Below, piece by piece: positions 49,318-56,849 of a stretch of DNA of 64,000 nt. Made by a program: the position numbers and the translations under genes. Below the pieces are notes generated by a model. It was not told the DNA's origin and did no database searches. It saw only the letters and a program-made list of their open reading frames with translations. This DNA comes from Betaproteobacteria bacterium UBA5216 (GTDB lineage: Bacteria; Pseudomonadota; Gammaproteobacteria; Burkholderiales; SG8-41): NCBI GenBank assembly GCA_002412495.1, contig DHVE01000129.1:45050-109049 (forward strand), in the 5' to 3' direction. How positions within the stretch are numbered: position 1 is the stretch's first letter; the number at the start of each line of letters is the position of its first letter.

Positions 49318-52194
49318 ATGAATCTCGAAGGCCCCGAATTATTTTTTCTCGAACAACCGGTCAGCACCGATGTGCTGCTGGAGAAATACGCCAAGGGTGA
49401 CGAACGCACGGTGGAAGATGTGCGCCGCCGCGTGGCGCGCGCGCTGGCCGCCGTGGAGAAAGATGCCGCGCGCTGGGAAGTTGAATTCTTCACAGCGCTA
49501 AGCAATGGCTTCATTCCCGGCGGGCGCGTCAATTCCGCCGCGGGTACTGACCTGCAGGCAACGCTGATCAATTGTTTTGTGCAACCGGTGGGCGATTCGG
49601 TGTCGCAAACAGTGGATGGCAAGCCGGGCATATACGTTGCACTGATGGAAGCCGCGGAAACCATGCGCCGCGGCGGCGGCGTGGGATATGACTTTTCGTC
49701 GATCCGCCCGAAGGGCGCCTATGTGCGCGGCACGCATTCTTCGGCCAGCGGCCCGGTGTCATACATGCGGGTGTTCGACCGCAGTTGCGAAACGGTCGAA
49801 TCCGCCGGCTCGCGGCGCGGTGCGCAGATGGGCATATTGCGTTGCGATCATCCGGACATCGAGGACTTCATCCACGCCAAGGACGAAGGCGACCTGCGCA
49901 ACTTTAACGTGAGCGTCGCGGTCACCGACGCCTTCATGCACGCGATGGAAACCGGCGGCGATTGGGAACTCGTGCATCGCGCCGCCCCCGGCGAGGCGTT
50001 CGTCAAAAATGCCCGCCAGCGCGCCGACGGCCTGTGGGTCTACCGCACGCTGCCCGCAAGTGAGTTGTGGCGGCAGATCATGCAAAGCACCTACGATCAC
50101 GCCGAGCCGGGGGTGGTGTTTATCGACCGCATCGCGGCGGATAACAATCTGTCGTATTGCGAACAGATTGAGTCGACCAATCCTTGCGCGGAACAGCCAC
50201 TCCCCCCTTACGGCTGCTGTTGCCTTGGCAGCATCAATCTCACCTGTTTTGTCAGCGATCCGTTCACGCCGCACGCGCGCTTTGATTTTGACGCCTTTGC
50301 GCGCGTGGTGCGCCCGTCGATACGCATGCTCGACAACGTGCTGGATGTGACGGTGTGGCCGCTGCCCCAGCAGCAGGCGGAGGCGCGCGCCAAGCGCCGC
50401 GTGGGCCTGGGATTCACCGGGCTGGGCGACACGCTGGTCATGCTCAACCTCAAGTACGACACCGATGACGCGCGTGCCATGGGTGCGCGCATCGCCGAGC
50501 GCATGCGTGATGAAGCCTACGCTGCTTCAGTGGATATCGCCAAGGACAAAGGCGCGTTTCCGCTGTTCGATGCGCGCGAGTACCTCGCGGCGCCGCGTTT
50601 TGCTTCGCGTCTGCCGGCACGTTTGCAATCGGAGATAACCCGCCACGGCCTGCGCAACAGCCACCTGTTGTCGATCGCGCCCACCGGCACCATTTCGCTT
50701 GCGTTTGCCGACAACGCCTCGAACGGCATCGAGCCGGCGTTTGCCTGGGTGTATCAGCGCAAGAAGCGCATGCCCGACGACACGCACAAAACCTACGATG
50801 TCGAAGATCACGCGTGGCGGCTCTTTCGCCATCAGGGCGGCGACGCGGAAAAACTGCCGCCGGCGTTTGTAACGGCGCTGTCGATTTCCGCGCTTGACCA
50901 CATGCGCATGGTAGCGGCGGTGGCGCCGTTCGTTGATTCGGCGATCAGCAAAACGGTCAACGTGCCGGAGGATTATCCGTACGCGCAATTCGCGGACCTG
51001 TATTTCGAGGCCTGGAAATCGGGGTTAAAGGGCATCACCACCTACCGCCCCAACGCCGTGCTGGGCAGCGTGCTGTCGGTCGCTGTCGCCAATAAGGCCG
51101 CGCAACCCAACGACCTGGATACCACCGACGCCGATCGCCGCATTCAGCTCGACGCGGCGCCCCAACCCGCTCTGGCGAGCCTGCGCTGGCCGGGACGGCC
51201 CACGCTGCCCACCGGCAATCCGTCATGGACCTACATGGTCGAATCGCCGTACGGGCGCTACGCGATTTTTGTCGGGCACGTTGAAAACGCAGGCAGCCCA
51301 CCGACGCCGTTTGAAGTGTGGATCAACGGCAACGAGCAGCCGCGCGGCATCGGCGCGGTAGCCAAAACCTTGTCGATGGACATGCGCGCGCAAGACGCCA
51401 AGTGGCTGCGCGTCAAGCTCGATATGCTGGCGCGCGCGGGCGGCGAACCGTTCGAGTGCGCCATGCCGCCCTCGGGTCTGCCCGTACGCGTGCCGGGCAT
51501 GGTGGCGGCCTTCGCGCGCATCGTGCGTTATCGCATCGATCAACTGGGCGCACTGGCACAATCGGGCGATGCCGATGCAAATACCGAACCTGGCGCCAGG
51601 TCACCGATACTCGACGCGCTGTTCGCCAAAAAAGAACCCAAGACCGGCCCCGACGGCACAATGTCGTGGACGGCCGATGTCTACAACCCGAGTTCGGAAG
51701 ACGACTTTGTGCTGATGCTGAAGGAACTCGTGCTGTCCAATGGCCAGCGGCGCCCCTACTCGGTGTGGATGGCTGGCGTGTATCCGCGCGCGCTCGATGG
51801 CCTGTGCAAGCTGTTGTCGCTGGATATGCGCGTGATTGATCCGGCGTGGATCGGCATGAAACTGCGCAAGTTACTCACCTACGACGAGCCGCTGGGGGAT
51901 TTCATGGCGCGCGTGCCGGGCGAAGAACGCCAGGAAAATTATCCCGGCACGGTGGCCTATGTCGCGCGGCTCATCATTCACCGCTACGCCATGCTCGGCG
52001 TGCTCGACGAGCGCGGATATCCGCTCGACGACATGGGCGTGCTCGAAATCCCCGACGACGACCGCAAACCCGCTGCCTACGCCTACAAAGCTTTGCACGG
52101 TAAACCGTGCAAGGAATGCGGCAACTCCGCGATCATTAAAAAAGACGGCTGCGAGTTTTGCACGGCGTGCGGGGCTATTGGGGCATGTGGCTAG
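49318..52194 (+). CDS. nrdJ: Adenosylcobalamin-dependent ribonucleotide reductase, class II (NrdJ)
   Basis: 958 aa. GGGVGYDFSSIRP, active-site STNPCAEQPL...LGSINL, and a C-terminal Cys cluster CKECG...CEFCTACG. Start trimmed to ATG 49318 from the track ORF at 49159. Confidence 0.9.
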   Translation: MNLEGPELFFLEQPVSTDVLLEKYAKGDERTVEDVRRRVARALAAVEKDAARWEVEFFTALSNGFIPGGRVNSAAGTDLQATLINCFVQPVGDSVSQTVDGKPGIYVALMEAAETMRRGGGVGYDFSSIRPKGAYVRGTHSSASGPVSYMRVFDRSCETVESAGSRRGAQMGILRCDHPDIEDFIHAKDEGDLRNFNVSVAVTDAFMHAMETGGDWELVHRAAPGEAFVKNARQRADGLWVYRTLPASELWRQIMQSTYDHAEPGVVFIDRIAADNNLSYCEQIESTNPCAEQPLPPYGCCCLGSINLTCFVSDPFTPHARFDFDAFARVVRPSIRMLDNVLDVTVWPLPQQQAEARAKRRVGLGFTGLGDTLVMLNLKYDTDDARAMGARIAERMRDEAYAASVDIAKDKGAFPLFDAREYLAAPRFASRLPARLQSEITRHGLRNSHLLSIAPTGTISLAFADNASNGIEPAFAWVYQRKKRMPDDTHKTYDVEDHAWRLFRHQGGDAEKLPPAFVTALSISALDHMRMVAAVAPFVDSAISKTVNVPEDYPYAQFADLYFEAWKSGLKGITTYRPNAVLGSVLSVAVANKAAQPNDLDTTDADRRIQLDAAPQPALASLRWPGRPTLPTGNPSWTYMVESPYGRYAIFVGHVENAGSPPTPFEVWINGNEQPRGIGAVAKTLSMDMRAQDAKWLRVKLDMLARAGGEPFECAMPPSGLPVRVPGMVAAFARIVRYRIDQLGALAQSGDADANTEPGARSPILDALFAKKEPKTGPDGTMSWTADVYNPSSEDDFVLMLKELVLSNGQRRPYSVWMAGVYPRALDGLCKLLSLDMRVIDPAWIGMKLRKLLTYDEPLGDFMARVPGEERQENYPGTVAYVARLIIHRYAMLGVLDERGYPLDDMGVLEIPDDDRKPAAYAYKALHGKPCKECGNSAIIKKDGCEFCTACGAIGACG

Positions 52195-52642
52195 AGAGGG
52201 AAAATATCCTTTTAAAACACTTGGTTATATTTATCCGTGAAGATAGGTATTTGAGGTGACAGGCAGTGCGCGAAATGATCGGATCTTGGGCTTATATGTC
52301 GACACTTGATTTCCTCGGCAAAGGCTCTCGATGATTGACAACCATCGGCCAACTCCAAGACTGCGAAGGTGGTTTCCGACATTGGCTGCTTATCGGCCAG
52401 AGCCATCTTTGGCTCCGTGCAGCATCAACGGCAGGTTTAGGTCTGGCACCAGCCATTGCCCAAAAGAATGGGGGCGAATGGCGGCTGTCTGTTGCGACGA
52501 ATGCGTGCTCCTGCCCCGTTGCGGACCGTGGCGCAGCTGTCAAAGCGGACGCTCAACGCCTCAGTTCTGCCGCCCCTTATAGGCGGGCTAAGGACCGTCC
52601 AATCGGGTCGGCTGCAACTGATGTTAATCAGTGTGCGGATAA

Positions 52643-53506
52643 TCACTTCGTGGCCGCACCGACAAGGCATTCGCCCGGCACCTCGAACCCACCATGCGAT
52701 TCGAAACTGCGCATTGCGCCTTCCACTTCGTTCCACGCGGACTTGCGTTCTTGTGGGAGCAAGTGAGCCATCATGGCATTGAATCCACCGAAGGCCTCTT
52801 CGGCGACCCGCACGTACTCTGCAGCACTAGCCGCTCTATGTGGCACCGGCACAGCGCGAACCTCGGGGCCGGCAAATCCCGCTTGACGGAAGACGTTTTC
52901 GAGTAGCCCGGGACCGCCAAGGCTGAACGGTCCGGGTTGCCCTGGAACGGGAGGCGAAAGTTGCGCTCGCCGGCGGATGATGGAAGCGGGCAGAGCCCCC
53001 CAACTGTTTCGATCGGGCGACGAAAAGACAGCGACGGCGACCCGACCTCCAGGTCTGAGAACACGGCGCCACTCGCGTAGCGCTGCCACAGGATCAGGCA
53101 TATACATAAGACCAAGCCTACACAGCACCACATCAAAGGAAGCGTCAGGAAGATCAACTCTCTCGCCGTCCATGACGCGGGTCTCGATTTGTTTATATCC
53201 CCGTTCACGGGCGACCTGGAGCGCAAGCTCAATGATCCCTTCTGAGATGTCGGTCGCGAGTACATAACCGCTAGGGCCAACTCGTTCGGCGGCACTGACC
53301 GCCGGTTCACCTGCCCCGGCGGCAACGTCCAGGATGCGCTGACCTGGCTGAGTCCGGGCTAGGTCGAGCATCTGGCGAGTGGCTACGCCATACCAACGCT
53401 CCAGAGTGGGAGTCCAGCGCCGCCACGCTGCGCCGTCCTTGTTCCATTGTTCCCGCTGCGCGTTCTTGTACTTCGCTGCGTCGAATGAGGGTTGCTGTTC
53501 GGCCAT
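52643..53506 (-). CDS. Class I SAM-dependent methyltransferase
   Basis: ILDVAAGAGEPA (motif I) ...FDVVLCRLGLMYMPD...LRPGGRVAVAVF. Confidence 0.8.
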   Translation of the reverse strand: MAEQQPSFDAAKYKNAQREQWNKDGAAWRRWTPTLERWYGVATRQMLDLARTQPGQRILDVAAGAGEPAVSAAERVGPSGYVLATDISEGIIELALQVARERGYKQIETRVMDGERVDLPDASFDVVLCRLGLMYMPDPVAALREWRRVLRPGGRVAVAVFSSPDRNSWGALPASIIRRRAQLSPPVPGQPGPFSLGGPGLLENVFRQAGFAGPEVRAVPVPHRAASAAEYVRVAEEAFGGFNAMMAHLLPQERKSAWNEVEGAMRSFESHGGFEVPGECLVGAATK

Positions 53507-53700
53507 AGGAAGTACTCCTCTCGGTTAGACATTGATGCTGCGGTTACACGCTTACGAAACGTACGGATTGGAACCACTTTCGCGTTTCAAGTTCACACCG
53601 CACAAGCCGAGTGTAAGTTACTTGGCATGTCTGCCAACTTAAGCATATTTGTCCTATTGAGGCCGGCATGAGCTATTCCCTGCTCACTCTGTAAGCCGAA

Positions 53701-53923
53701 ATTGAAAATACAGGGGTTTTTGCCAATGGCCGGTTACTAATTTACCCGGAGATTCACTCTCCCAGCCAATAGCGGTGGTTTCGAGTTACGTTTCGATTGG
53801 CACACAATTCTTGTTCAAACAACTTGTTGTGCATCATCTGGTAATCGCATAGCATCGCCTTCGGCAAGACTGCTGGCGAGTGCATAGCTCGCCTAACCTA
53901 TCTCCGTTCCTTTGGCGTAGCCC
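53701..53923 (+). repeat. Copy 1 of a repeated intergenic leader element (upstream of the DUF1330 gene)
   Basis: Core 53761-53923 aligns at roughly 70% (by eye) with 54529-54680. It includes GTTTCGA-GTTAC-GTTTCGA direct repeats and the hairpin GGCGAG-tgcatag-CTCGCC (53875-53893). Confidence 0.6.
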
Positions 53924-53972
53924 GGTGCGCTTTTTATGCGATGGGCAATCACAACCAGCTATAAGGGATATC

Positions 53973-54359
53973 ATGAAAATTAGTTACAAAGCATTATTGA
54001 CTCTGCTCGTGGGCATTTCACTTGGTGGGGCGGTCATTCAGGGGCTTAATGCCCAGGGCAAACCCACAGTACCGGTCTATATTGTCAACGAAGTAGAGGT
54101 AATCGATCAGGCTGGGTTTAAGACCTACGCAGACCGCCAAGAGGTATTGATCAAGAAAAACGGTGGACGATACATCATCCGGGGCGGAAAAGTCACGGCA
54201 CTTGATGGTACGCCCCCCAAGCGGTTCACTGTGTATGTTTTTGACAGCATGGAAAAGATGCAGAGTTGGCAAAATGACCCTGCGCAAAAGGAACTGATGG
54301 CGATGCGTAGCAAGGCTGCCAAGTTCCACTCGTTCGCAGTCGAAGGTATTCCAAACTAG
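53973..54359 (+). CDS. DUF1330-domain protein with N-terminal signal peptide
   Basis: MKISYKALLTLLVGISLGGAVIQGLNA, then YIVNEVEVIDQAGFKTYA...GGRYIIRGGKV...VYVFDSMEKMQSWQNDP. ATG 53973 was chosen. Confidence 0.7.
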   Translation: MKISYKALLTLLVGISLGGAVIQGLNAQGKPTVPVYIVNEVEVIDQAGFKTYADRQEVLIKKNGGRYIIRGGKVTALDGTPPKRFTVYVFDSMEKMQSWQNDPAQKELMAMRSKAAKFHSFAVEGIPN

Positions 54360-54434
54360 CACGCATCAATTATCTGATCTCAGGGCGCCATCAGTTGGTG
54401 CCCTCGTTTTTCTTATGCTGGCTCAGTGGTGTTT

Positions 54435-54680
54435 TGAAAATTGCCCGAGATGGTGGTGCCGTGCGACCAATCAACTGCGAAAATGCGCCAGAAATCGGCC
54501 AGCGGCCTTCACTGGGCGTATTTCGCTACCCTGCCGATAGCGGCGGTTTCCGGTTACGTTTCGATTTGCACAAAATCCGCGCTCAATATATCCGTTGTAG
54601 TGCATCAGTTAATCGCATGGGATCAAGCTTGGAAAGACTGAAGGTGCTTGCCTAGCACTCCGTTACTTTGGCGTATCGCC
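54435..54680 (+). repeat. Copy 2 of the repeated intergenic leader element (upstream of the cytochrome c gene)
   Basis: Aligns with copy 1. The hairpin GGTGCT-tgcct-AGCACT (54643-54659) carries compensatory changes relative to copy 1. Confidence 0.6.
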
Positions 54681-54710
54681 AATACTCCATAAACCGAGGG
54701 GGGATTATTC

Positions 54711-55706
54711 GTGAAAAGAATCAAAAACACTTTGCTTCATGGACTGGGTATATTGGCCATCACCATCAGCAGCAGCTACGCCCAAAGCGGCGGCTCACTC
54801 CCCGCAGGGGCTGCCGACGGACTTCCCAATTGGGCCTTTATATGGGATCCGAACGTCAAGGTGCCACCGCCAGACGACAAGCCCAATTCGCTCCCCGGCA
54901 GCAGCGCGAGTTACAGTTGGAGGCAGGCGCGCGATTTGTTCGTGGCGCCGGACTGGCATCCAAGCGATCATGGACCAATGCCGGATATTGTCGCCAACGG
55001 ACGCAAGCCGGATGTACGCGCCTGCGGCTCTTGCCATCGCGCTGAGGGTACTGGCGGGCCCGAAAATGCAAATCTCGCTGGACTGCCCATCAGCTATTTC
55101 GTTCAGCAAATCGCCGATTTCAAAAGTGGCGCGAGAAAGATGTCGGGCCCTGACAGGCCAGCCAAAACATTGATGATGGGATCAGTCAAAGCCATGACCG
55201 ATGCCGAGGCTCTCGTCGCTGCGCAATATTTTTCGGCACTGCAGCCCAGGCGCAATGTCAAGGTCGTCGAAGCCGAGATGATTCCAAAGACCGGCGAAGC
55301 GCGGCTGTTTTTCACCAAGAGTCCGGGCGGTGGTACCGAGCCTCTCGGTCGCCGCATTGTCGAGTTTCCGGATAACGAAGATCAATTCGAACTTCGCGAC
55401 ACGCATTCGACTTTTACGGCTTATGTGCCGGTCGGAAGCGTGGCCAAGGGAGAAGCACTGGCCAAGACCGGCGGCGCCGGAACCACCCTAGCCTGTAGCA
55501 TCTGTCACGGACCGGCATTGAAGGGTGTCGGCCCGATTCCCCGGATCGCTGGACGCTCGCCGACCTACATCGTGCGCCAGCTCTATGAGTTCAAGACGGG
55601 CGGTCGATCGGCGGGCGCCAGCGCGCTGATGAAGCAAGCTGTCGATAAACTTTCGCCGGAAGACATTATCGCGCTCGCGGCGTATATCGGCTCTCTGGAG
55701 CCGTAG
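54711..55706 (+). CDS. Periplasmic di-heme c-type cytochrome
   Basis: Signal peptide and two CXXCH motifs (CGSCH, CSICH). GTG 54711 is preceded by GAGGGGGG. Confidence 0.8.
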   Translation: MKRIKNTLLHGLGILAITISSSYAQSGGSLPAGAADGLPNWAFIWDPNVKVPPPDDKPNSLPGSSASYSWRQARDLFVAPDWHPSDHGPMPDIVANGRKPDVRACGSCHRAEGTGGPENANLAGLPISYFVQQIADFKSGARKMSGPDRPAKTLMMGSVKAMTDAEALVAAQYFSALQPRRNVKVVEAEMIPKTGEARLFFTKSPGGGTEPLGRRIVEFPDNEDQFELRDTHSTFTAYVPVGSVAKGEALAKTGGAGTTLACSICHGPALKGVGPIPRIAGRSPTYIVRQLYEFKTGGRSAGASALMKQAVDKLSPEDIIALAAYIGSLEP

Positions 55707-55751
55707 ACGTCCCGACGGGCCGCGCCCGGTCGGTTCAAATATAAAGCCGCT

Positions 55752-55815
55752 GTGTGACCAATCAACGGCGGCCTTAGCTCGCGATCGAATTTGCGAGGCA
55801 ACATGTGCACGAATG
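55752..55815 (+). repeat. Partial copy 3 of the repeated element (downstream of the cytochrome c gene)
   Basis: GTGTGACCAATCAACGGCG matches 54461-54479 (GTGCGACCAATCAACTGCG). CGATCGAATTTGCGA resembles the ...TTTCGATTTGCACA segment. Confidence 0.4.
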
Positions 55816-56096
55816 GTGGCTATGGAGAAACTTAAATGGCCAGAGTGGCTCGGTAGAACGGTTTCCTCGTTCTAGACAGCGGCCATTCAATCTTACTTTG
55901 GGCAATAGCTGGTAACTGATGGACACCGGTCGCCCATGTTACGCGGAGCCAACTGCAGAAATGGCCGAGCACCAAACGCCGCCGATGGTTACAGCGGATG
56001 CTTTTTAAGACTCAATTTCGACCAGTCGAATTTCTGGATGGCCATCGGTCACGCATCCCGAACTCCGATACTGACCGTCAGATTCAGCGCACTCCC

Positions 56097-56849
56097 TCAG
56101 CGCGCAGTGCCGCTCAACCCGGGAATTGCCAAACACAGCAAGCCCGAATGCAGCGTCGCAGCGGCAGGCCGCGTGGCTTGGATCAGGCTGAACGCACCGG
56201 CCACCGTAAGCACCACGATCGCCGCGATGCGCGCGGCGGGTGCAATGACGGCGCCGCGGGCGCGGTGACAAAAAGCGGCGATCAACAACACGTTCGGCAA
56301 GGTGCCCAATCCGAACGCCAGCATCACCAGCGTGCCCTCGATGGCGCTAACCGTGGCGAGCGCGGTGAGGAGCATCGCGTAGACCATGGCGCAAGGCAGC
56401 CAGCCCCATGCCAACCCAAGACCAAAGGCACGAGCGGCGTTGTCGGCCGGCAAAAACCGCCGCGACCAAGGCTGAACGTGCCGCCACAACACGCCGCCCG
56501 CCGCGGCCAAGCCACGTTCAACCGGCTTGAAGCCCGAAATCGTCAATGCAAACAATAACAGCGCGATGCCCGCCAACGCCATCGCCATCTGTTGCACTGC
56601 CACGCCACCGCGCAACGCCAGACCGGCTTCGCCGAGTGCGCCCGCCAGCGCACCGCCAGCCGCGTAGGTGGTGATGCGCCCGGCGTTATAACCCAGCGCC
56701 AGCCACCAGCGCTGCGACTTTCCTTGCGTCGGCCCACGCGGCCCGCAGGCCGCACCGATGATGCCGCCGCACATGGCCGCGCAATGCACGCCGTTGAGCA
56801 AGCCCGCGAGAAACGCGGCCAGCAGGATGGTTTCGAGCCAGCCAATCAT
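56097..56849 (-). CDS. TauE/SafE-like (DsbD_2-type) membrane protein of the cco accessory cluster
   Basis: LLNGVHCAAMCGGI...GLAWGWLPCAMVY. This is the usual companion downstream of ccoGH in beta/gamma-proteobacteria. Confidence 0.7.
   Translation of the reverse strand: MIGWLETILLAAFLAGLLNGVHCAAMCGGIIGAACGPRGPTQGKSQRWWLALGYNAGRITTYAAGGALAGALGEAGLALRGGVAVQQMAMALAGIALLLFALTISGFKPVERGLAAAGGVLWRHVQPWSRRFLPADNAARAFGLGLAWGWLPCAMVYAMLLTALATVSAIEGTLVMLAFGLGTLPNVLLIAAFCHRARGAVIAPAARIAAIVVLTVAGAFSLIQATRPAAATLHSGLLCLAIPGLSGTAR

Follow-up and report, generated by a model that had tools for sequence, protein, structure and literature searches.

A recurrent, orientation-specific upstream repeat, possibly a reused promoter-plus-leader module, precedes three unrelated gene families in uncultured bacteria

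We describe a non-coding repeat in a stretch of 64,000 nucleotides (nt) of contig DHVE01000129.1 from Betaproteobacteria bacterium UBA5216; this whole stretch is called the window below. Two copies lie in the window, one upstream of a gene for an exported DUF1330 protein (copy 1) and one upstream of a gene for an exported di-heme cytochrome c (copy 2), in a cassette that also encodes a methyltransferase. The repeat is a recurrent, orientation-specific cis-regulatory module found upstream of three unrelated gene families. We give about an even chance to the reading that it is a reused promoter-plus-leader module, with each window copy driving a separate monocistronic gene for an exported protein within a cassette of foreign composition. 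Coordinates of the features are collected in Table 1.

Within the window, positions 53761-53893 align with 54529-54661 over 133 nt without a gap (71% identity, blastn E ~1e-13), and the match resumes beyond a 12-nt indel in a conserved leader block. An earlier note, made from the letters of this DNA alone, had placed a repeat of about 160-250 bp before both plus-strand genes. The repeat is real and measures about 150-160 nt; a length of 250 nt is unsupported for the window pair. By blastn, copy 1 is 73% identical to a third locus, L084, over 212 nt and 73% identical to copy 2 over 131 nt, and copy 2 is 85% identical to L060 and 77% identical to L006, both upstream of orthologous cytochrome c genes. 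The box GTTACGTTTCGATTGGCACACAAT keeps an ungapped, constant spacing to the -10-like hexamer and occurs twice in the window, against 0 occurrences expected. The core boxes of the element have no occurrences in the window outside the two copies. The GTTTCGA direct repeat is a feature of the two window copies alone; the remaining element instances have not conserved it.

The alleged third copy at 55752-55815 did not survive closer comparison. Its matching part is confined to 55749-55770, which resembles 54458-54479 (22 nt, 86%), upstream of the core of copy 2, and a search with an element profile built from five copies did not detect 55752-55815 at E<=10. The matching box is part of the cytochrome gene's own 3' flank, because this flank is conserved after the L008 orthologue: the first 111 nt past the cytochrome stop codon, box included, are 86% identical to the L008 flank. 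Each plus-strand gene is followed, 50-100 nt beyond its stop codon and terminator-like hairpin, by the 22-nt box (GYSGTGYGACCAATCAACKGCG; 54458-54479 and 55749-55770). The box after the cytochrome gene, which is conserved in L008, makes up the loop of a GCCGCTG/CGGCGGC hairpin.

Beyond the window, the element recurs on contigs from other samples. Nine instances were found: the two window copies and seven on metagenome or metagenome-assembled genome (MAG) contigs, four of them before a cytochrome c gene and three before a methyltransferase gene. All face a start codon. Those before orthologous cytochrome c genes are in L006 (MAG label Sterolibacterium), L060, L085 (found through an ENA contig) and L007 (MAG label Rhizobacter), where the element is truncated. 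The other three (L084, L097 and L098) precede members of a class-I methyltransferase family, whose L084 representative is 38% identical to the window methyltransferase. The host contigs derive from uncultured, mostly Burkholderiales-type bacteria. The proposal that one regulatory element serves both window genes is strengthened by these loci, in which the same module stands before start codons on other contigs.

A profile search of 910 kb of loci and of the rest of the window returned no further instance, and blastn with 53690-54720 gave no match in a plasmid collection. The JGI metagenomes were scanned with an exact pattern, which would miss divergent copies, and yielded one extra locus (L084). 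A locus identical to that of the window is present on metagenome contigs from other samples (L001-L003). Going by sample names (GFS, GL140, 336R, OTE, RYN and BUSI22; L004-L011, L085, L087-L095), nearly all contigs with the element or with its closest gene homologues seem to derive from a single type of study. The apparent rarity of the element may partly reflect sampling.

The element is distributed unevenly among orthologues. No element was found upstream of the close cytochrome c homologues in L004, L005, L008, L009 and L086, or upstream of the DUF1330 homologues in L087-L092, which include the closest (80% and 72% identical). In L086 (2965-3867), L004 and L009, a different upstream region with a divergent LysR-type regulator gene replaces the element; the L086 regulator gene was called as two pieces. 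Among methyltransferase orthologues of L084, the element is present in L098 (96%) and L097 (86%), only a short version of it in L096 (89%) and L094 (79%), and L093 (86%) retains the -10-like motif only and gave no match to the element profile. Across the element core, L084 (methyltransferase) and L006 (cytochrome c) are 83% identical, compared with 69% for copy 2 and L006, which precede orthologous cytochromes. As judged from these sequence comparisons, element similarity and downstream-gene phylogeny are decoupled, and the element is gained, lost or exchanged independently of these genes.

The instances fall into two subtypes. Subtype I (copy 1, L084, L098 and L097) has a 12-nt insertion and a second, terminator-like hairpin; subtype II, the cytochrome copies, has a shorter leader and lacks the terminator-like hairpin. 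The copies are 60-83% identical and their internal spacing is exact over ~100 nt, and this combination therefore indicates purifying selection.

Such constraint bears on the reading that the repeat has no regulatory role and is either a remnant of segmental duplication or a small non-autonomous mobile element in the intergenic DNA of an acquired cassette. We consider this unlikely, though it deserves some weight. The cassette has a foreign composition and is bracketed by ~80-nt inverted repeats; the element is sporadic among close orthologues; and very large collections hold a handful of copies, the metagenome pattern scan contributing a single one. A functionless repeat accounts poorly for an element that always faces a start codon with its 3' end at a consistent distance, that keeps exact spacing at such divergence, and that is carried by three gene families, two of them neighbours in the window. 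Nor did the window repeat search show terminal inverted repeats, target duplications or direct repeats flanking either copy, and classing the repeat itself as a MITE (miniature inverted-repeat transposable element) was rejected on this basis.

The reused promoter-plus-leader reading draws on the spacing of the conserved blocks and on their position relative to start codons. From the GTTAC box through TTGTGG-N17-TAGTAT, all nine copies have identical spacing with no gaps. The methyltransferase orthologues L093, L094 and L096, which are leaderless, have the motif TAATCGCGCA[T/G]AAT (TAATCGC..CA[T/G]AAT) ~23 nt before the ATG, where a -10 element belongs. Diverged upstream boxes, GGCCAGTTGCGG..GGTTAC..AATTTG, precede this -10-like motif in L094 and L096. 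Conservation and position together suggest a sigma-70-type promoter. The word operator, which the earlier note had offered as an alternative to an RNA element, fits the 5' two-thirds of the element better.

On this basis we propose that the 5' two-thirds of the module would exert control at the DNA level, through upstream boxes (GGCCAA.., GTTACGTTTCGATTTGCACACAAT) for a putative transcription factor and a weak sigma-70-type core, TTGTGG-N17-TAGTAT, that is probably activator-dependent. Transcription would start a few bases past TAGTAT. The 3' third would then form a leader of 80-120 nt whose one conserved feature, a stem-loop of 6 bp located 15-35 nt from its 5' end, may bind a protein or have a stabilising effect on the mRNA. 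For the long-leader subtype, attenuation may be added by the stem-loop together with the weak terminator-like hairpin downstream of it.

Several observations weigh against this assignment. A consensus sigma-70 scan did not list the TTGTGG-N17-TAGTAT unit. Its hexamers are weak in the window, where TTGTGC and TTGTAG keep 3/6 of the -35 consensus and copy 2 has TGGGAT at the -10 position, and the promoters of the short methyltransferase versions have no obvious -35. The nearly gap-free conservation, ~190 nt long, exceeds that of a typical promoter, and pure promoter DNA would not be expected to hold a reading frame that, as here, stays open in all copies as far as the hairpin-loop TAG. The element also has no candidate regulator gene linked to it. 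Among other motif types, sigma-54, FNR/CRP, LysR-box and extracytoplasmic function (ECF)-type motifs were considered by inspecting the conserved blocks by eye, not by formal scanning, and none fits the required spacing.

A shared module would place the cytochrome, DUF1330 and methyltransferase genes under one signal, the methyltransferase being reached through the divergent intergenic region or, in L084, L097 and L098, directly. Co-regulation of all three cassette genes is plausible because the methyltransferase gene shares its intergenic region with copy 1 and its family carries the element elsewhere. Alignment revealed no minus-oriented element copy upstream of the window methyltransferase gene. 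What does occur there is a short match to TACGTTTCG (53556-53566 region) and a motif TGTAACCGC..CATCAATG, neither of them statistically secure. The minus strand of 53541-53566, ~50 nt upstream of the methyltransferase start, reads GTACGTTTCGTAAGCGTGTAACCGCAGCATCAATG; it has TACGTTTCG in common with the most conserved box of the element, and its TGTAACCGC..CATCAATG part resembles TGTAATCGCGCAGAATG, a motif that is promoter-proximal in the L093 and L094 methyltransferase orthologues.

We also weighed readings in which the element acts as RNA. In the first, the whole ~200-nt element is transcribed from a promoter further upstream and functions as a structured, riboswitch-like cis-regulatory RNA controlling the downstream gene. 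A long, nearly gap-free, orientation-specific block conserved before three unrelated gene families is what such an RNA would look like, and the type I copies have a terminator-like hairpin of the kind found in an expression platform. The fold itself argues otherwise. Compared with dinucleotide shuffles, four copies have fold z-scores of -0.99, -0.09, +0.69 and +0.81, and RNAalifold on five copies returned an unfavourable covariation term (+4.56). The long inverted repeat (CGATT-TGCACACAA ... TTGTGGTGCA ... AATCG) carries uncompensated substitutions in copy 2, L006, L007, L085 and L097, and in L097 its 5' arm is lost outright, replaced by other sequence. A global RNA structure was rejected on the z-scores, the RNAalifold result and the uncompensated substitutions.

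The Rfam search that the earlier note had proposed matched the element to no family. With 4227 models, the whole window gave 0 hits at gathering thresholds; at E<=10, the region 52100-56200 gave only a chance long non-coding RNA (lncRNA) hit inside the cytochrome gene, and five other element-bearing loci gave no hit on the element. A new family would give no match either. Two variants also speak against a structured RNA: a microhomology deletion in L007 removes the leader hairpin and the CTCCGTT block and leaves the upstream part and an intact cytochrome c gene, and the short methyltransferase versions consist of only the 5' boxes and the -10-like motif, right beside the start codon. The ribosome-binding site points the same way. 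Predicted probabilities that the Shine-Dalgarno sequence is paired are 0.95 in copy 1 and 0.24-0.81 in the others, below the shuffled-leader mean in 7/9 copies and not above shuffled controls in 8/9. Sequestration of the Shine-Dalgarno sequence by the CUCC block, in the manner of an RNA thermometer, was rejected, since only copy 1 shows it.

The remaining support for a structured RNA comes from the small leader hairpin, which the earlier note had presented as preserved by three compensatory changes between the window copies. Both hairpins exist. The changes are not at homologous pairs, because copy 1 has its 3' arm displaced by 2 nt: in the alignment TGC.TAGC is in register, and the copy 1 arm runs on into the 12-nt insertion. 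Counted in the copy-2 register over the six copies that keep the region (L097 and L098, found later, are not counted), 86% of hairpin cells are paired, against 19-67% in slid controls, and two pairs change on both sides; the copy-1 register pairs 67%. This covariation is not significant, since 57-80 of 500 shuffles do as well. The two later copies also form the hairpin. L097 does so in the register of copy 1 (GGUGCG/CGCGCU, where A-U has given way to C-G), and L098 in the copy-2 register (U-A, G-C, C-G, G.U, C-G, U-A), so that the hairpin is present in all eight copies that retain the region.

On these alignments a small hairpin is clearly kept at the leader site, with pairs that run through a C-G/U.G/U-A series and a G.U/U.G/U-A series. 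Frequent G.U pairs mean that it works only on the plus strand, which suggests RNA, and it probably lies in the transcribed leader. The type I hairpin, GGCGYA-RCCCGG-UGCGCY followed by a U-run, has likewise persisted in L084, L098 and L097, where its pairs alternate between G-C and G.U and between C-G and U.G. Taking register shift, covariation, fold signal and Rfam together, the assertion that covariation proves a structured 5' untranslated-region RNA is unsupported, and we regard a riboswitch-like RNA spanning the whole element as very unlikely.

In the second RNA-level reading, the element encodes a short Cys-rich leader peptide of 22-26 residues (M-P-A-K-T-A-C-C-G-A-C-V-N-R-L-V-S-V...) whose translation controls the downstream hairpins, possibly sensing cysteine or redox state. 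An open frame encoding a Cys-rich peptide (..KTACCGACVNRLVSV..) occupies 53803-53887 and 54571-54655 and the same columns in the other seven copies. It stays open in the nine copies to the same hairpin-loop TAG, except in L060, which has an earlier TAG, and L007, which has the deletion. An ATG stands at one column in L006, L060, L085, L084 and L098, with GTG in L007, and one Ser codon varies among TCG, TCA, TCC and TCT. In L084, UGCGCC occurs twice and GGCGCA could pair with either, giving an antiterminator/terminator layout. A test for an attenuator found a 6-bp hairpin with a U-run and an alternative 2:3 pairing of 4-6 bp in type I, and neither in type II.

The frame is real, but its substitutions are not coding-like. 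The synonymous fraction is 0.35, against 0.35 and 0.38 in two minus-strand frames, and second codon positions are nearly as variable as third positions. The window copies begin with ATT and ATC and L097 with GGT, and where an ATG is present no Shine-Dalgarno sequence precedes it. Type II copies have no terminator hairpin, and a ribosome stalled at the Cys codons, ~50 nt upstream, would not reach far enough to mask the hairpin. A small coding frame was rejected on its substitutions and on the start codons missing from the window copies and L097, and we hold a leader peptide to be highly improbable. The broader proposition is that uncultured freshwater Burkholderiales have an undescribed device acting at the RNA level, whether a new leader RNA with a cis-regulatory role or a leader-peptide attenuator rich in Cys codons, that ties the cytochrome, DUF1330 and methyltransferase genes into a cysteine-, sulfur- or redox-sensing regulon; this, too, strikes us as quite unlikely.

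Promoter reuse by putative mobile promoters (Nijveen, Matus-Garcia and van Passel 2012, PMC3575422) was reportedly also the subject of Matus-Garcia et al. (NAR, Nucleic Acids Research, 2012), and it is the closest concept to the promoter-plus-leader reading that we prefer. Putative mobile promoters are homologous non-coding sequences upstream of non-homologous genes, within and between genomes; they have no link to a known insertion sequence and no Rfam match, and are thought to rewire regulation (PMC3575422). The operational threshold asks for an identity of 80% or more across 50 nt or more, located within -150..-50 of two genes that belong to the same genome (PMC3575422). As in that class, the genes downstream of the present element (DUF1330 and cytochrome c in the window, methyltransferase elsewhere) belong to unrelated Pfam families and are not paralogous. 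The module differs in including a long leader, and the best 50-nt segment of copies 1 and 2 matches at 39/50 positions (78%), narrowly under 80%, so that the window pair fits the definition in spirit. The window copies have diverged to ~70%, which suggests that the duplication is old and was retained by selection, and that no move took place recently.

Other known systems were compared with the element as well. Like riboswitches and Rfam leader RNAs, it is orientation-specific, precedes unrelated genes and has a conserved hairpin, with a terminator-like stem and U-run in one subtype; unlike them, it has no Rfam match or global-fold signal, and the L007 variant does without the hairpin block. 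It resembles trp/his/pheA-type attenuators in its short open frame with clustered Cys codons and a stop beside the first hairpin, and in the alternative pairings of type I followed by a terminator-like hairpin. It differs from them in a frame that lacks a Shine-Dalgarno sequence, coding-type substitutions and, in some copies, a start codon, and in Cys codons that lie far from segment 1.

Were the shared promoter/operator to hold, the exported DUF1330 protein, the c4-like di-heme cytochrome and the UbiE-like methyltransferase would belong to one regulon, which would be a first clue to the function of DUF1330, placing it in a periplasmic redox setting. The element also shows neatly how, in nature, a regulatory region is exchanged among unrelated genes without regard to their coding sequences, with long-leader, short-leader and leaderless variants coexisting among close orthologues. 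It is rare and occurs in a narrow group of uncultured bacteria; as far as sequence comparison goes, it would represent fairly ordinary promoter reuse and does not overturn current understanding.

The genomic setting is a three-gene cassette. Gene nrdJ ends at 52194, a minus-strand DsbD_2 gene ends at 56097, and the three genes lie in between. The cassette is a real lower-GC islet, as the earlier note had held: the GC content of 52195-56096 is 0.555, the minimum among all 3.9-kb segments of the 64 kb (mean 0.608, standard deviation (sd) 0.02), and the 400-nt segment with the lowest GC (0.462) begins at 53601. Four long intergenic regions account for part of the dip. The methyltransferase, DUF1330 and cytochrome genes have a third-position GC (GC3) of 0.604, 0.566 and 0.645, respectively, 1.3-2.6 sd under the window mean (0.719 +/- 0.058, 39 long open reading frames (ORFs)), compared with 0.77-0.79 for the flanking nrdJ and DsbD_2 genes.

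Pfam confirmed the gene content read from the sequence, namely a minus-strand S-adenosylmethionine (SAM)-dependent methyltransferase, an exported DUF1330 protein and a di-heme cytochrome c. No NCBIfam model or equivalog reached its cut-off for the methyltransferase (52643-53506). The closest solved relatives of the cytochrome in the PDB are cytochromes c4, and its homologues occur in many unrelated genomic contexts. Eighty loci encoding such homologues were gathered from genomes and MAGs; a DUF1330 or methyltransferase gene adjoins the cytochrome gene in none of the 80, and does so only on the identical contigs L001-L003. DUF1330 and the cytochrome form separate transcription units, because an intrinsic terminator at 54382-54404 follows the DUF1330 gene.

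An imperfect inverted repeat of ~80 nt, ~70% identical, brackets the cassette, with conserved blocks TTGGCTCCG, ACCAGC.ATTGCCCAAA and GAATGGC.GCTGTCT. Its alignment score is 39, compared with 19 +/- 2.2 for shuffles (maximum 28, n=500) and <=27 for random window segments. No target-site duplication was seen at its ends and no further copies were found. The inverted repeats and the base composition suggest that the three genes arrived, or were rearranged, as a single unit. Domain and tRNA scans found no integrase or transposase domain and no tRNA in the cassette, in agreement with the first reading of the islet as free of integrases and transposases. Of the usual marks of a genomic island, deviant composition and flanking inverted repeats were thus seen, and an integrase, a transposase and a tRNA were not found. 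The cassette resembles inverted-repeat-flanked islets (MITE-like elements or the cargo of non-autonomous transposons) in its low GC and GC3, the varied contexts of its gene homologues and its ~80-nt imperfect inverted repeats. It differs from them in having no transposase, integrase, tRNA or visible target-site duplication, and in repeats that are only ~70% identical.

Table 1. Features of the cassette and of the two element copies, in window positions
Feature	Positions	Strand	Remarks
Three-gene cassette	52195..56096	.	Between nrdJ and the DsbD_2/FixH/ccoG genes; base composition distinct
Left arm, imperfect inverted repeat bracketing the cassette	52409..52490	+	Local alignment to reverse complement of 55874-55952
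Class-I SAM-dependent methyltransferase, 287 aa	52643..53506	-	Pfam Methyltransf_11/25/31, Ubie_methyltran; divergent from copy 1
Element copy 1, type I, long leader	53727..53972	+	Ends at DUF1330 start codon; nhmmer E = 7.5e-50
Conserved upstream box of copy 1, GTTACGTTTCGATTGGCACACAAT, putative operator/activator site	53785..53812	+	Most conserved block across nine copies
Candidate promoter of copy 1, TTGTGC-N17-TAGCAT	53827..53855	+	Suggested by spacing common to all copies
Leader hairpin of copy 1, GGCGAG-TGCATAG-CTCGCC	53875..53893	+	Read from sequence; forms in minimum-free-energy fold
Conserved leader block of copy 1, CTCCGTTCCTTTGGCGTA	53902..53919	+	17/18 identical to 54658-54675
Terminator-like hairpin and T-run, type I copies only, possible attenuator	53914..53935	+	Terminator scan
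DUF1330 protein, 128 aa, hydrophobic N-terminal signal-like peptide	53973..54359	+	Pfam PF07045 E = 2e-20; PDB 2fiu match
Intrinsic terminator after DUF1330	54382..54414	+	Nine pairs, six G-C, then CGTTTTTCTT; called strong
22-nt box GCCGTGCGACCAATCAACTGCG	54458..54479	+	Pairs with 55749-55770, 86%; two matches vs 0.3 expected
Element copy 2, type II, short leader	54529..54710	+	Ends at cytochrome c start codon; nhmmer E = 1.3e-56
Candidate promoter of copy 2, TTGTAG-N17-TGGGAT, weaker -10	54595..54623	+	Suggested by alignment with other copies
Leader hairpin of copy 2, GGTGCT-TGCCT-AGCACT	54643..54659	+	Third pair: U-A in copy 2, U.G in L060, C-G in L006
Exported di-heme c-type cytochrome, 331 aa, CGSCH and CSICH	54711..55706	+	Pfam Cytochrom_C; signal-like N-terminus
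3' flank of cytochrome c gene	55707..55817	+	Hairpin and 22-nt box; 86% over 113 nt to sequence downstream of L008 cytochrome c
Right arm, imperfect inverted repeat bracketing the cassette	55874..55952	-	Local alignment to 52409-52490

The collected loci hold further features near the genes in question. Directly downstream of the element-associated methyltransferase gene and convergent to it lies an ORF of 105-111 codons, conserved on four independent contigs (L084 172-507(+), L094 4795-5130(-), L096 1808-2143(-) and L098 1515-1832(-)), with no Pfam or NCBIfam match. In L095 (2390-3970, 4624-5325), a 72%-identical methyltransferase orthologue lies directly behind a second methyltransferase gene, with a chromate-transporter fragment and a Y1 (IS200-type) transposase nearby. 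In L087, two copies of an antitoxin/ParE-toxin pair (560-1065 and 2377-2882) lie upstream of the 72%-identical DUF1330 homologue, whose gene is followed by one for an NMT1-family binding protein. In L085, positions 1583-1658, ~60 nt past the cytochrome c stop codon, match group II intron domain V (RF00029) at 46.7 bits, above the gathering score.

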